Shown here in pieces: positions 11,791 through 18,320 of a DNA stretch of 35,102 nt. A model generated the notes under the pieces. The model had not been told where the DNA came from, did no database searches, and was given only the letters and a program-made list of their open reading frames with translations. The stretch is taken from positions 1 through 35,102 of the forward strand of contig JBBTYX010000007.1 of the NCBI GenBank assembly GCA_038078515.1, in the 5' to 3' direction. The stretch's first letter is position 1. Every line of letters begins with the position of its first letter. The translations under genes and the position numbers were made by a program. The DNA comes from Patescibacteria group bacterium (GTDB taxonomy: Bacteria; Patescibacteriota; Minisyncoccia; 2-01-FULL-47-10; JBBTYX01).

Positions 11791-11819
11791 AACAATCGGT
11801 AACTCGGTTACCGATTGTT
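11791..11819. repeat. Palindromic element copy 1 (13-bp arms AACAATCGGTAAC, centre TCG; 21-mer core at 11795-11815), followed by a T7 run
   Basis: An exact inverted repeat read directly from the sequence. Its position after tRNA-Gln and the following T-run make it terminator-like. Confidence 0.9.
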
Positions 11820-14506: not shown

Positions 14507-15109
14507 ATGGAACAAATCATTAAAAAAATAATTGAAATACTAAGCAAAGACGGAGTTGTTGTTTTGCCGACTGATACTGTTTATGGCATTTGCTGTTCAT
14601 TTGAAAGCATAAAAGCATATCAAAAAATATTAGCTATAAAAGGAAGAGAAGCTGAAAAACTTTTGCCTGTATTTGTTCATTGTATGCAAAAGGCAAAAGA
14701 GATTGCGTATATAAATAAAAAACAAGAGCAAATATTAAATGTGTTTTGGCCTGGGAGTATTACTTGTATTTTAAAATCAAAAATAAAAAATAAATTTAAC
14801 TTTCTTAACACAATTGCTATTCGTATTCCAGATAATAATTTATTGTTAAAAATTTTATTGGAATTTAAAAAACCTCTTTTTCAAACATCTGCTAATTTAT
14901 CCGGATTAAATCCAGCTAAAAATGTAGATGAGATACAAAAACAGTTTAAAGATAATTTTGTAAAGCCGGATCTTATTATTGATGGAGGAAATTTATCAAA
15001 AGACTTAAATTCAACAATAGTTGATTTAACTAAAAAACCTTATCGTATATTGCGTCAAGGGAAAAACTATATATTAGTCCAAAAAACCTTGGAACGAATA
15101 TCCTCGTAA
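14507..15109 (+). CDS. tsaC: L-threonylcarbamoyladenylate synthase, YrdC/TsaC type (t6A biosynthesis)
   Basis: YrdC-domain pattern: VVVLPTDTVYGICC ... IKGREAEKLLPVFV ... WPGSIT ... IRIP ... QTSANLSG. About 200 aa with no Sua5 C-domain. Confidence 0.8.
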   Translation: MEQIIKKIIEILSKDGVVVLPTDTVYGICCSFESIKAYQKILAIKGREAEKLLPVFVHCMQKAKEIAYINKKQEQILNVFWPGSITCILKSKIKNKFNFLNTIAIRIPDNNLLLKILLEFKKPLFQTSANLSGLNPAKNVDEIQKQFKDNFVKPDLIIDGGNLSKDLNSTIVDLTKKPYRILRQGKNYILVQKTLERISS

Positions 15110-15895
15110 AAAATCGCTCCAACTCATATCTTTTCGTCCTTCGGGCCTAATTTTTTTAATTTTAATTTCATTATTTTGAACTTCTGCTTCTAATATTTGT
15201 ATTCTTATTATTTTTGATTTTTGATTTTTTGTTTTAATTTTTGCATAAGAAAAAGCTATAGGCCATTCTATATAAGCTCTTATTTTTCTCTCTATTATTT
15301 CTGGAGATTCTTTCCAATTTATTTTAGCGTTTTCTTTTTTAATTAAATTTGTATAGGTTGCTTTATTTTCGTCTTGTTTAACAATCGGTAACTCGGTTAC
15401 CGATTGTTTTAATTTTTCTAAAATATCAATTAGCAAGTTAGCTCCTAAATTAAATAAAATTTCACCCAATTTTTTTGTTGTGTATTTTTTATCAATAATA
15501 AATTCTCTTTGAATTAAAATAGGTCCAGCGTCTATTTTTTCTGTCATTTTAATAATTGTAACGCCGGCAATTTTATCACCATTTATGATTGTTTCTTGCA
15601 ATGGCGATGGCCCCCTGTATTTTGGCAAAAGAGAAGGATGAATATTTAAAATACCATATTTAAACTTCTTAATAATATTTTTAGGAATTATTTTTCCATA
15701 TGAAGCAACAATGCCAAGAGAGTACTTATCATTAAGTAAATGTTTACTATTTTTGCCAATAATTAAATCAGGCTTGAAATTGTAGCTAGTAAAGTTAGCG
15801 TCCAATTCCGTTTCATTAAGTCTATTTAAAATTATTTTTGAATATTCGCTATCGCCAAAAAATACTAATTTTTTTATTATTTGCTTATTGTTCAT
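15074..15895 (-). CDS. fmt: Methionyl-tRNA formyltransferase (short form)
   Basis: VASYGKIIP ... ILNIHPSLLPKYRGPSPLQ ... GVTIIKMTEKIDAGPIL is followed by a C-terminal domain containing YIEWPIAF. It sits downstream of def in the conserved priA-def-fmt order and carries palindromic element copy 4 in frame. Confidence 0.85.
   Translation of the reverse strand: MNNKQIIKKLVFFGDSEYSKIILNRLNETELDANFTSYNFKPDLIIGKNSKHLLNDKYSLGIVASYGKIIPKNIIKKFKYGILNIHPSLLPKYRGPSPLQETIINGDKIAGVTIIKMTEKIDAGPILIQREFIIDKKYTTKKLGEILFNLGANLLIDILEKLKQSVTELPIVKQDENKATYTNLIKKENAKINWKESPEIIERKIRAYIEWPIAFSYAKIKTKNQKSKIIRIQILEAEVQNNEIKIKKIRPEGRKDMSWSDFLRGYSFQGFLD
15380..15408. repeat. Palindromic element copy 4 (13-bp arms; core 15384-15404), inside fmt, translated as KQSVTELPIV on the minus strand
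   Basis: The 29-mer is identical to copy 1. Confidence 0.9.
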
Positions 15896-16418
15896 TGTTT
15901 TTTGTTTTTATTTCTTTCCATTTATCAGAAATTAAAATACCTTGCAAATGGTCATATTCGTGTTGTAATACCTTTGCTAAAAATCCTTTTGCATGCAACT
16001 TAAATTCTTTTCCTTCTAAATTTTTAGCTTTGATATTTACGCGACAAGCGCGTCTCACAAAGCCATATTTTTTAGGTATAGACAAACATCCTTCTCCTTC
16101 GTCATTATATGGTTTAGATATTTTACTTATAATCGGATTTATAAAAACATATCCATTTTTAATATCAATATTATCAATTTTATCAAATTTATATTTAGAT
16201 ACGCCTTTATGCGATTCATCTTTAAACGCGATACTATCAACAACAAATAGCTGTATATTTTTTCCTACTTGCGGCGCGGCTAATCCAACGCCCTTCCATT
16301 CGCGCATTTTAATAAACATATCTAAAACAAGCTCCTTTACATCATGAGTTATATGTTCTATTTTCTTGTTTTCATTTCTTAATATTGGATTTTTTTTACC
16401 TATTGTTAATGTGAGCAT
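15885..16418 (-). CDS. def: Peptide deformylase
   Basis: All three signature motifs are present: GVGLAAPQVG, EGCLSIP and QHEYDHLQG. Confidence 0.92.
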   Translation of the reverse strand: MLTLTIGKKNPILRNENKKIEHITHDVKELVLDMFIKMREWKGVGLAAPQVGKNIQLFVVDSIAFKDESHKGVSKYKFDKIDNIDIKNGYVFINPIISKISKPYNDEGEGCLSIPKKYGFVRRACRVNIKAKNLEGKEFKLHAKGFLAKVLQHEYDHLQGILISDKWKEIKTKNNEQ

Positions 16419-16422
16419 AATT

Positions 16423-18180
16423 CTATTCTAAAATATCAACTTCCCAATCAAAAGGAATAAATTCAAGTAAATATTTTTTTACATCTCTGCTTCCAATTTT
16501 AATAATAATTTCATAACGAAACTTTCCCTTTAATTTATATATTAAAGCTGGCATAAAATCAAATATTTTTGTATTTAATCCTTTTTTATTTTTAATATAT
16601 TCCAATTTTTTATTTAAAACCTTTGCTTCGTTTATGGCGCTTACTTCGTTTTTATGGGAAAAAGTTAATTTAATCATTTCTGTAAACGGCGGATAATTTA
16701 AAGCTTTTCTTTCTTTTAATTCATTCTCATAAAATAATTTATAATCATTTTTTAAAATAGCGTTGTAAATAATATTTTCCTTATCATATGTTTGTATAGC
16801 AAAATCATTTTTAGCAAAATTTTTTAACCGCCATAAATTAAAAAAAGTATAAAGAAACGCGTTATAATCAGGAAAATTAAGCTCTAAATCTGGCGCAAGA
16901 GCTATTACGCAATCAAATTCTAAATTTTTAAATTTAAAAATTATTGAAGTTGTTATTGTAAAATCTGCATTATTTATATCTAAAATTTGTTCTTCTAAAT
17001 CTTTTTTTACATCTGAGTCCAGTCTAACCACTTTGACAAAGGGCATTATTTCTTTTATTTTTTGTTCAACTTGTTGCGTGCCAAAACCAAAAAGCCCTAA
17101 ATTATGATAACCGCATTTATCGCATATTTTAGGAGTCTCTGTTTTATACAAACAATAATGACAAAGAAGATAAGGTAATTCAAATTTTTTATGATAAGTA
17201 AGAGTAACGCTACAATTTTTACATTGAGGCATAAAACCGCAATCTTTACAAACAACTAAACGAGAATACCCTCTGCGATTTATATAAAGTAAAACTTTTT
17301 TATTTTCTTTAAACGATTTATTTAAAATATCAATAGTCTCTCTTATAAAAATATCTCCGTATGGCAAATTTATTAAATCTATTATTTTAGTTTTATTATT
17401 TTTATTATTTTCACTCCGCACTCTGTTTGCGGAGTGAAAACTTATATTTTTTTTCCAAGAAAAAAGAGATGGGATAGAGCAGTGATTTTCAATTTTAGCG
17501 CCAGTTAACTCTGCTAATTTTTTTGCAACTGAAACAGCGCTATAATGCGGTTTTTGATCCCAAGATAAATGCGATTGATCAAGTTCTTCATATATTATAA
17601 TTTTTTTTAAATTAATATATGGAGCAAAAAGAGCAGACTTAGTGCCTTTTACTTCGCTAATATTGCCATTTCTAATTTCATTAAACAAATCAAATTCTTT
17701 TTTTAATCCCAATTTAGATGTAATATCAATTTCATAATCGGTAACTCGGTTACCGATATATTTCATAGGATATAAATATAGCGTCTGTTCAACCTTTTCA
17801 CTATCGGTAACTCGGTTACCGATAGTGAATTTGTCTGGATTTTTCAGTAAATATTTTGGTATAAACTTTTTTAAAACAAGTCCAAAAGATGTCCAATAAT
17901 ACTGGCTTATCCATTTAGCTAATTCAATTTGATATGAAAATAACACAGGTTCGTCAATAATTGAATATTCAATAGGCTTTAGCGCAAAAGTAGAGCTTCT
18001 AATAATGCTTTTTTTATGTTTAATTGTATCGCATTCTAAAACAATTGCAGGATATTTTTTATTGCGCATTTTTATCTCAACCAATGATCCGATATTTAAT
18101 TTTCGCGCGCTAAAAAAACTCATTTCTTGCGGATTAGGACGAGGAATATTAGTTAACGGAGTAGCCTTTATTAAAAACAT
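16423..18180 (-). CDS. priA: Primosomal protein N' (PriA) homologue with degenerate helicase motifs
   Basis: Retained features: an N-terminal DNA-binding-like region, LAKWISQYYW, GTKSALFAPY, VLLYINRRGYSRLVVCKDCG, an 8-Cys zinc-binding region (CKDCGFMPQCKNC...CHYC...CDKCG), a GFGTQQVEQ block and the C-terminal domain. Synteny is priA-def-fmt. No GxGKT is present anywhere, and DEEH is replaced by YEEL. The start is placed at MFLIKATP (18180) rather than the track start 18213. Confidence 0.8.
   Translation of the reverse strand: MFLIKATPLTNIPRPNPQEMSFFSARKLNIGSLVEIKMRNKKYPAIVLECDTIKHKKSIIRSSTFALKPIEYSIIDEPVLFSYQIELAKWISQYYWTSFGLVLKKFIPKYLLKNPDKFTIGNRVTDSEKVEQTLYLYPMKYIGNRVTDYEIDITSKLGLKKEFDLFNEIRNGNISEVKGTKSALFAPYINLKKIIIYEELDQSHLSWDQKPHYSAVSVAKKLAELTGAKIENHCSIPSLFSWKKNISFHSANRVRSENNKNNKTKIIDLINLPYGDIFIRETIDILNKSFKENKKVLLYINRRGYSRLVVCKDCGFMPQCKNCSVTLTYHKKFELPYLLCHYCLYKTETPKICDKCGYHNLGLFGFGTQQVEQKIKEIMPFVKVVRLDSDVKKDLEEQILDINNADFTITTSIIFKFKNLEFDCVIALAPDLELNFPDYNAFLYTFFNLWRLKNFAKNDFAIQTYDKENIIYNAILKNDYKLFYENELKERKALNYPPFTEMIKLTFSHKNEVSAINEAKVLNKKLEYIKNKKGLNTKIFDFMPALIYKLKGKFRYEIIIKIGSRDVKKYLLEFIPFDWEVDILE
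17408..17440. repeat. A second, different perfect palindrome inside priA (13-bp arms TTTTCACTCCGCA / TGCGGAGTGAAAA, 7-nt loop)
   Basis: Read directly from the sequence. It is translated as FHSANRVRSEN on the minus strand. I did not see it elsewhere in the window. Confidence 0.8.
17737..17757. repeat. Palindromic element copy 5, inside priA, translated as IGNRVTD
   Basis: Exact 21-mer. Confidence 0.9.
17803..17823. repeat. Palindromic element copy 6, inside priA, translated as IGNRVTD. The local palindrome extends to CACTATCGG...CCGATAGTG (17800-17826).
   Basis: Exact 21-mer, located 45 bp from copy 5. Confidence 0.9.
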
Positions 18181-18320
18181 ATAACATAACATATAACACA
18201 TAACACATAGCAATTCAATGCATTGTGATAATTTTTTTGCTCAAAATACAAAAAAAGTGTAAAATGGATTAAATGTATAATCTATAATTAAGATGTTTAA
18301 AAATTTTGTCATTAAAAATT

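Follow-up and report, generated by a model that had tools for sequence, protein, structure and literature searches.

A probable PriA pseudohelicase with an excised P-loop in a class of Patescibacteria

Across bacteria, PriA has been described as having conserved helicase motifs, the notable exception being Deinococcus-Thermus (PMC4504706). The PriA pseudohelicase of this group was reported by Lopper, Boone and Morrow in 2015: the protein of Deinococcus radiodurans has neither ATPase nor helicase activity, and it binds single-stranded DNA (ssDNA) and forks, with evidence for an interaction with DnaB (PMC4504706). In Escherichia coli, the product of priA300 (K230R) is dead as an ATPase, a helicase and a translocase; the mutant is nearly wild type in vivo and the protein is active in restart assays (PMC5778457). 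Here, we analyze the priA gene of a Patescibacteria group bacterium of the class Minisyncoccia, within the candidate phyla radiation (CPR). It lies on contig JBBTYX010000007.1 of assembly GCA_038078515.1 (positions 1 to 35,102, the whole of which we call the window). Judging from its sequence, a structural model and the analogy with the systems above, the gene product is probably (we would put it at about 75%) a natural PriA pseudohelicase, a fork-binding scaffold rather than a motor. By its sequence, it departs further from canonical PriA than the Deinococcus pseudohelicase does, and it arose independently. An earlier note, made from the letters of the window, had already described an apparently ATPase- and helicase-dead PriA, and in our alignments every canonical nucleotide-site residue is indeed gone.

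Like the Deinococcus-Thermus protein, for which a non-motor role in restart has been proposed, this PriA has lost the residues of ATP hydrolysis and kept the DNA-binding domains and the Cys-rich region (CRR). Furthermore, among the CPR PriAs that lack the helicase motifs (hereafter motif-less) and keep the P-loop segment, Arg is the residue that most often faces E. coli K230 (35%, in a part of the alignment that is uncertain), a K-to-R change also seen in Deinococcus-Thermus and in E. coli priA300. The differences concern extent and origin. Walker A and Walker B are recognisable but mismatched in Deinococcus-Thermus, whereas our protein has had its P-loop deleted and has also lost motifs III, V and VI, and the loss in CPR bacteria is of independent origin and concerns a far larger radiation. 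The Deinococcus protein has been assayed biochemically, whereas the CPR protein is known here from its sequence and a model. PriA K230R of E. coli is likewise a motor-dead PriA that still assembles the primosome, and serves as a laboratory model of the role proposed below (PMC5778457). However, the E. coli Walker A mutants are engineered point changes in a complete helicase that works with PriB, DnaT and DnaC, none of which was found in this genome, and the E. coli winged-helix domain is also absent here. With canonical PriA (E. coli and Klebsiella pneumoniae; PDB 8FAK, 6DCR, 4NL4 and 6DGD) the protein shares the domain order, the fold, the eight-Cys region and motifs Ib, IV and IVa, and with the canonical CPR PriAs it shares the gene neighbourhood. 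Compared with canonical PriA, it has no winged helix, Q motif, P-loop, helix alpha-1, DExH, SAT, motif V glycine or arginine finger, and it counts 585 aa against 732 aa in E. coli.

Our search of the literature on PriA in the candidate phyla radiation, Patescibacteria or Parcubacteria returned no description of a motif-less PriA, and one promising match concerned the phylum UBP6. Actinobacterial PriA (NCBIfam PRK14873 models, "primosome assembly protein PriA") is flagged in database annotation as being without detectable helicase motifs, which, if true, would make it another natural motor-less lineage. A literature search on actinobacterial PriA returned no usable paper. The PRK14873 models match our protein weakly (at most 61 bits), which places it outside the actinobacterial lineage.

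The gene is a minus-strand open reading frame (ORF) that runs from an ATG at 18180 to a stop codon at 16423-16425, and its translation is uninterrupted, in line with the intact frame read in the earlier note. An in-frame TTG upstream, at 18213, would give an alternative product of 596 aa, but close and distant homologues all begin at an ATG-encoded MF(L/I)..., and we thus retain 18180 as the start. The NCBIfam model of priA, TIGR00595, matches the protein with 251.4 bits, above its equivalog cut-off of 230.35, and the match is confined to profile positions 57-479. Pfam identifies PriA_3primeBD (residues 27-108), Zn_ribbon_PriA (320-346) and PriA_C (498-571), and finds no DEAD or Helicase_C domain in the protein. 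In a phmmer search of the PDB, residues 66-111 align with positions 74-119, and residues 163-565 with positions 301-713, of the K. pneumoniae PriA chain in 4NL4 (these are chain positions, the deposited chain carrying extra residues).

A pattern search finds no Walker A motif (G-x4-G-K-[ST]) in the whole protein. The earlier note had seen as much, and our alignments refine the observation, as they indicate that motif I was deleted rather than mutated. When E. coli PriA (MG1655 record) is added to a 121-sequence alignment for motif comparison, its motif I (224-GVTGSGKT-231), the Q-motif region upstream and the helix that follows all face a gap in our protein, which spans E. coli residues 203-245. 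The spacer between P108, at the end of the 3' DNA-binding domain (3'BD), and P138, in motif Ia, counts 29 aa here. In canonical CPR PriAs it is 74-88 aa long, and in E. coli PriA, which also carries the winged-helix domain, 151 aa. Judged from these alignments, about 45 residues, corresponding to the strand, the P-loop and the helix, are deleted relative to canonical CPR PriAs, and Walker A is not cryptic. We searched for a cryptic P-loop by pattern, profile, pairwise alignment, multiple alignment and fold, and found none. We also considered whether the loss of the winged-helix domain is part of this degeneration, and rejected the idea: canonical CPR PriAs also lack the domain, and its absence is therefore unrelated to the loss of the motifs.

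The other motifs are degenerate at the places where the earlier note had put the changes. The replacements in motifs II and III (Table 1) are found in the alignments to both the PDB PriA and E. coli PriA. GTQMLAKGH of E. coli motif V aligns with TTSIIFKFK, and QVAGRAGR of motif VI with RLKNFA and a 5-residue deletion. The earlier note would have been contradicted by a cryptic arginine finger; what the fold and the alignments (profile, pairwise and multiple) give instead is a shortened, non-basic motif VI segment, in which R584 and R587 have no equivalents. In motif Ia, P138 is conserved in 94% of the motif-less PriAs and the strand 132-136 is present in the AlphaFold model. Conservation was computed column by column over 108 motif-less PriAs and compared with canonical PriAs. 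The columns conserved at 85% or more in the canonical proteins and lost in the motif-less ones are Q203, G224-E232, I255/L257/T258/Q260, A357/T358, G545 and Q580/G583/R584/G586/R587 (E. coli numbering); each of the last five is matched in at most 13% of the motif-less rows, or falls in a gap. By their alignment, the lost columns are the nucleotide-site residues, which touch the nucleotide in superfamily 2 (SF2) helicases, together with motif Ia. Binding or hydrolysis of ATP at the canonical site is thus predicted to be impossible for this PriA.

Several other parts of the protein are retained. The earlier note had listed as retained the N-terminal DNA-binding region, the C-terminal domain (CTD), the LLYINRRGY strand and the eight zinc-binding cysteines. 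PF17764 and PF18074 indeed match above their cut-offs, and R302 of the strand is conserved in 100% of the motif-less proteins. On the CRR, PF18319 scores 25.7 bits, slightly below its cut-off of 26, and the eight Cys (311, 314, 320, 323, 340, 343, 353 and 356, forming four CxxC pairs) are invariant in the 121 aligned sequences. The alignments reveal further elements that were kept, namely GFGTQQVEQ, RLDSD, T411 of motif V, QTY, YPPF and motif IVa. An AlphaFold2 model built on the 121-row alignment has a pLDDT of 94 and a pTM of 0.93, and the nine best matches found by Foldseek in the PDB are all PriA (8fak_H, E 3.6e-42, TMq 0.83). The VIA-align superposition on fork-bound E. coli PriA (8FAK chain H) covers 559 of the 585 residues at 3.0 Å rmsd (Z 28.9). 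It is poorer on apo PriA 4NL4 (Z 23.7, 4.5 Å, 501 residues), and the best non-PriA structures (Mfd, UvrB and other SF2 proteins) have Z of 16 or less. The closer fit to the fork-bound conformer is a hint, as the conformer that AlphaFold chooses is no evidence for a constitutive state. Taken from sequence and model, the architecture of PriA is complete: 3'BD, two RecA-like lobes, zinc-bound CRR and CTD.

A word-indexed search for relatives returned, as the nearest 20 proteins, sequences at 28-88% identity, 18 of which align over 96-100% of the query. The Pfam DEAD domain is absent in all 20 and Helicase_C in 18; one is annotated as Candidatus Portnoybacteria and one as Parcubacteria. We then examined the best 150 matches of an exhaustive search that covered 1.84 billion representatives at 50% identity, and in about 115 of these Walker A, DExH, SATP and motif VI are all missing at once. 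In a FastTree phylogeny of 174 sequences, 134 rows are motif-less and 115 of the rows form a single, entirely motif-less clade (support 99), with the query in a subclade of 13 rows (support 100). The trait requires at least 4 changes on this tree, against 36 when labels are shuffled, and the median terminal branch in the clade of 115 is 0.67 substitutions per site. Since the rows were picked by similarity to the query, the share of motif-less proteins in the tree is uninformative for bacteria at large. This bias is removed by sampling genomes, and we thus used 201 genomes of the query's class and 121 genomes of the phylum.

About 120 of the 201 class genomes have a strong PriA match, which mostly starts at positions 12-20 of TIGR00595 and scores 150-390 bits, and about 80 have only weak matches, to other helicases. 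Walker A and motif VI are missing in 40 of the 41 PriA ORFs taken from class genomes, including the 20 best-scoring ones, and the exception is in genome G167. In the other classes of the phylum sample, PriA scores 450-640 bits and matches from position 1 of the profile. Among the 30 best of these proteins, 27 match the patterns of both Walker A and motif VI, the remaining 3 miss one each, and most of the 30 also match DExH, SATP and GTQ. The survey of PriA motifs across CPR genomes that the earlier note had suggested thus sets a largely motif-less class against largely canonical ones. On the sequences, the loss of the motifs is class-wide and old; this reach, together with the published precedent, goes beyond what the earlier note had proposed.

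The gene order priA-def-fmt adjoins motif-less and canonical CPR PriAs alike, in most of the related loci, which makes the motif-less protein the positional orthologue of priA. Since the same locus is found beside both forms and the canonical form is that of the other classes, the loss occurred within Patescibacteria, independently of Deinococcus-Thermus. The motif-less group is itself tiered by the length of the P108-P138 spacer: in 72 of 108 proteins it counts 50-69 aa (degenerate), and in 30 of 108, including this one, 20-39 aa (excised). The P-loop element has been cut from the RecA fold in this most reduced tier. Finally, PriA is absent from 54 of the 121 genomes of the phylum sample (E <= 1e-30), and repeated losses of the gene seem to have occurred among CPR bacteria.

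Two side observations concern the genome samples. Many of the genomes without PriA are 95-100% complete. In a few others, the PriA match is split over at least two adjacent matches (G127:C6:54925-56257, G194:C1:223246-224608, G027:C18:6115-7529, G030:C15:61559-63706 and G066:C57:30446-31906), and these may be broken or split priA genes, to judge from the sequences. The pieces in G127 and G194 occupy distinct open frames, about 280 and 380 aa long, and two TAA codons stand in frame in the piece of G027 that matches the 3'BD. Elsewhere in the phylum, in another class, a canonical PriA match (G260:C21:1-1230) has one in-frame TGA, possibly the sign of an alternative genetic code there.

If the protein is no longer a motor, one can ask where selection now acts on it. 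We computed the mean pairwise identity of each domain relative to the whole protein, and compared canonical PriAs with the motif-less clade. The values fall from 1.22 to 0.94 in lobe 1 and from 1.31 to 0.93 in lobe 2b; they rise from 0.69 to 1.04 in the 3'BD, from 0.76 to 1.10 in the CTD and from 1.03 to 1.27 in the CRR, the top domain of the motif-less clade. Read from these alignments, constraint has moved from the helicase lobes to the 3'BD, the CRR and the CTD. In the cryo-EM structure of fork-bound E. coli PriA, the 3'BD grips the 3' end of the leading strand, the CTD aids the binding of the leading arm, a loop of lobe 1 is wedged in the junction, and the CRR, lobe 2 and the CTD form a pore around the lagging-strand ssDNA (PMC10175261). 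The wedging loop is aromatic-rich (PMC10175261, PMC5778457), and its counterpart here is among the conserved segments (Table 1). As far as can be judged by alignment, the elements that are kept or most conserved in our protein are those that contact the fork in E. coli PriA. At the same time, column conservation gives the motif-less clade a signature distinct from canonical PriA: S206, K57, F65 and the SWDQ loop.

Selection on the gene itself was estimated with four relatives from JGI metagenomes, at 69-72% identity, which are full-length and intact, and each of which is followed by def and fmt. The pairwise dN/dS (NG86) of the whole gene against these sister copies is 0.23-0.31, and by domain 0.10-0.23 in the 3'BD, 0.08-0.25 in the CRR, 0.19-0.22 in the CTD, 0.19-0.29 in the lobe-1 remnant and 0.24-0.60 in lobe 2, figures that are approximate because dS between the window and the sisters is 0.5-1.0. 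The comparison between degenerate and retained parts, which the earlier note had called for, thus returns values below 1 in both. The lobes, by these estimates, evolve somewhat faster and yet stay constrained.

The genome (502 kb in 78 contigs, about 80% complete) encodes DnaB, a DnaA-like ORF, RecA, one UvrD-type helicase and a single SSB with an acidic tail (...EEDMPF). Its RecG keeps GDVGTGKT, DEQH and QLRGRIGR, which shows that the loss in PriA is specific to this gene and is not general drift; we thus rejected a genome-wide decay of helicase motifs by drift or AT bias. The earlier note had also raised alternative restart or helicase-loading proteins. We found no DciA, DnaC/DnaI, DnaD, DnaT, PriC or PriB (searched as a second SSB-fold protein) in this genome, bearing in mind its completeness and that these are small and divergent proteins. 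The sole IstB-type match of the loader search is the DnaA-like ORF, on C60.

The folding, the conservation and the motif loss described above are read from the sequences and the model. For DNA binding, contact with SSB or DnaB and a role in restart, we infer from E. coli priA300 and D. radiodurans PriA, and the earlier suggestion of a DNA-binding or scaffolding factor gains from the same two precedents as well as from the shift in constraint. The protein would retain the recognition of abandoned forks and of the D-loops made by RecA. Its 3'BD would hold the end of the newly made leading strand, the conserved SWDQxPxY loop of lobe 1 would be placed at the junction, and the CRR, lobe 2 and CTD would grip the lagging-strand template. 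PriA would then be a static platform which, aided by the acidic tail of SSB, returns DnaB to the DNA without any unwinding of its own, and fork remodelling would be left to the intact RecG and the single UvrD-like helicase. More broadly, and tentatively, since we hold it to be somewhat short of probable, a class-level radiation of ultra-small CPR bacteria, with hundreds of divergent lineages, may restart replication with a motorless PriA that loads DnaB directly, without PriB, DnaT, DnaC or DnaD.

Besides the approximate nature of the dN/dS figures, several points weigh against a scaffold acting in restart. PriA is absent from about 40% of the sampled class genomes (around 80 of 201), which implies that some lineages can do without it and that it may play only a minor part. 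Degradation also extends to motif Ia, a motif that usually makes contact with DNA. The AlphaFold model remains compatible with an unconventional nucleotide site. Finally, none of the known partners or loaders that we searched for was found in the genome.

Some of these points would fit a neofunctionalised DNA-binding protein, which uses the PriA fold for a job other than reloading the replisome. Such a protein could protect or mark stalled forks and D-loops, antagonise or guide RecG, or aid the loading of DnaB at the origin where no loader is detectable. The lack of PriB, DnaT, DnaC, DnaD and DciA in the genome, the clade-specific signature (S206, K57, F65, SWDQ loop) and the disappearance of PriA from many members of the class, which is unusual for a core restart factor, all go in this direction. 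However, the conserved parts are exactly the elements by which PriA recognizes forks (3'BD, junction loop, CRR and CTD), the gene is in the ancestral priA-def-fmt locus, and a helicase-dead PriA supports restart in E. coli (PMC5778457). As for the loaders, among 61 class genomes 11-19 have a detectable DciA, hence a divergent copy could be missed here. We thus consider a change of function to be unlikely.

It is far less likely still that the protein remains ATP-dependent, with a non-canonical nucleotide site, or a partner ATPase acting in trans, that keeps translocase or helicase activity. The strand, loop and helix that carry the P-loop are deleted and no P-loop is found elsewhere in the protein. 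Motif III and the Asp of Walker B have disappeared, as have the Gly of motif V and the two Arg of motif VI, the conservation of the lobes has relaxed to the average, and in E. coli PriA K230R alone abolishes all activity (PMC5778457). This outweighs the fact that both RecA-like lobes are still folded in the model and that E. coli PriA has been proposed to have a second and weaker site for nucleotide (PMC5778457). Lastly, a decaying, functionless gene, open by chance or through polar effects on def-fmt, would account for the loss of all catalytic motifs, for three palindromic repeat copies within the gene and for the loss of PriA from many relatives, but it is strongly disfavoured and we reject a pseudogene, given the intact ORFs here and in the four sister contigs, a dN/dS well under 1 in each domain, full-length ORFs with the Cys and other residues invariant in more than 100 divergent lineages of a deep clade, a pLDDT of 94, and repeats that leave the frame intact and fall in surface loops modelled with low confidence.

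In CPR bacteria, the Deinococcus-type exception becomes a large radiation with a more radical loss: five motifs are gone and the P-loop is excised from a gene still under selection, with the constraint now on the domains of fork recognition. This supports the view, derived from priA300, that what is essential in PriA is to recognize forks and to scaffold the primosome, and it makes natural proteins available for testing this view. It also leads one to ask how minimal genomes reload DnaB when no known PriA partner or loader is detectable in them. The automated label "replication restart helicase PriA" overstates the capacity of this protein. If motorless restart is true, the core function of PriA, both ancestral and sufficient, would be a scaffolding that needs no helicase, and the class would offer a graded natural series for dissecting the purpose of the helicase, from canonical to motif-dead, then P-loop-excised, then gene lost.

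The features of priA and its neighbours are listed in Table 1. The Pfam matches of def and fmt bear out the gene order given in the earlier note, and the divergent gene upstream of priA encodes a glycosyltransferase of the WecG/TagA type.

Table 1. Position of priA, its domains and motif remnants, the downstream genes and the palindromic repeats in the window.
Feature	Coordinates	Strand	Evidence
fmt (methionyl-tRNA formyltransferase), 11-nt overlap with def	15074..15895	-	PF00551 and PF02911
def (peptide deformylase), starts 4 nt past the priA stop	15885..16418	-	PF01327, E 9.6e-44
priA, ATPase-motif-less PriA (585 aa and stop)	16423..18180	-	ORF; TIGR00595; PDB PriA match, E 1.8e-34
C-terminal domain (residues 481-585), kept	16426..16740	-	PF18074, E 2.2e-11, 44.9 bits (cut-off 26.9)
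Motif VI position FFNLWRLKNFAKN, arginine finger absent, segment 5 residues shorter	16807..16845	-	Alignment
Motif V remnant FTITTSIIFKFKN, only T411 kept	16924..16962	-	Alignments to K. pneumoniae and E. coli PriA
Cys-rich zinc-binding region (residues 311-360), all eight Cys	17101..17250	-	PF18319
Motif IV LLYINRRGYS, kept	17263..17292	-	R302 100% and G304 96% conserved
Second palindromic family copy, TTCACTCCGCA-N7-TGCGGAGTGAA, in frame, residues ~248-258, inter-lobe loop	17408..17440	.	pLDDT of block 251-260 = 68
Motif III remnant CSIPSL, SAT to SIP (residues 235-237)	17464..17481	-	Alignments to K. pneumoniae and E. coli PriA
Loop LSWDQKPHYSA, conserved, counterpart of the E. coli PriA aromatic-rich loop	17536..17568	-	S206 90% and P211 99% in 108 motif-less PriAs
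Motif II remnant IIIYEELDQSH, DEEH to YEEL (residues 197-200)	17569..17601	-	Alignments to K. pneumoniae and E. coli PriA
Motif Ib GTKSALFAPY, kept	17617..17646	-	G179, F185 and P187 conserved in motif-less and canonical PriAs
21-bp palindrome copy 2, in frame, IGNRVTD (residues 142-148)	17737..17757	.	pLDDT of block 141-150 = 62
Motif Ia remnant QTLYLYPMKY (residues 132-141)	17758..17787	-	Strand kept; T and Q of PEIxLTPQ lost
Short linker (residues 113-131) at the site of the deleted Q-motif helix, strand beta-1, Walker A P-loop and helix alpha-1	17788..17844	-	Alignment gap, spacer length, TIGR00595 match starting at position 57
21-bp palindrome copy 1, in frame, IGNRVTD (residues 120-126)	17803..17823	.	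pLDDT of block 121-130 = 68
3' DNA-binding domain (residues 1-112), kept	17845..18180	-	PF17764, E 1.6e-10, 41.1 bits (cut-off 22.7)

The gene carries palindromic repeats of two families, both specific to this genome. The strand of motif Ia is flanked by two copies of a perfect 21-bp palindrome, ATCGGTAAC-TCG-GTTACCGAT. The general form, ATCGGTAAC-NNN-GTTACCGAT, has 30 copies in the 0.5 Mb genome when at most one mismatch is allowed, where none is expected by chance, and further copies in the window are found at 11795, 11840, 12862, 15384 and 24385. The sister genes, at about 70% identity, have an unrelated sequence of equal length in place of the 21-mer, which indicates that the palindrome replaced sequence and was not inserted. 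The P-loop is likewise absent from these palindrome-free genes, and we thus rejected the possibility that the palindromes displaced it. The three repeat copies coincide with the only three dips of pLDDT in the model and, as sisters without repeats also lack the P-loop, they are passengers in tolerant loops rather than the cause of the loss. The second family is GC-rich with a 13-bp stem and counts 7 copies in the genome, the others being at C3:19357, C5:5958 and C55:217, 828, 4707 and 5787 (genome G000). Its copy in priA scores as terminator-like on the strand antisense to the gene.

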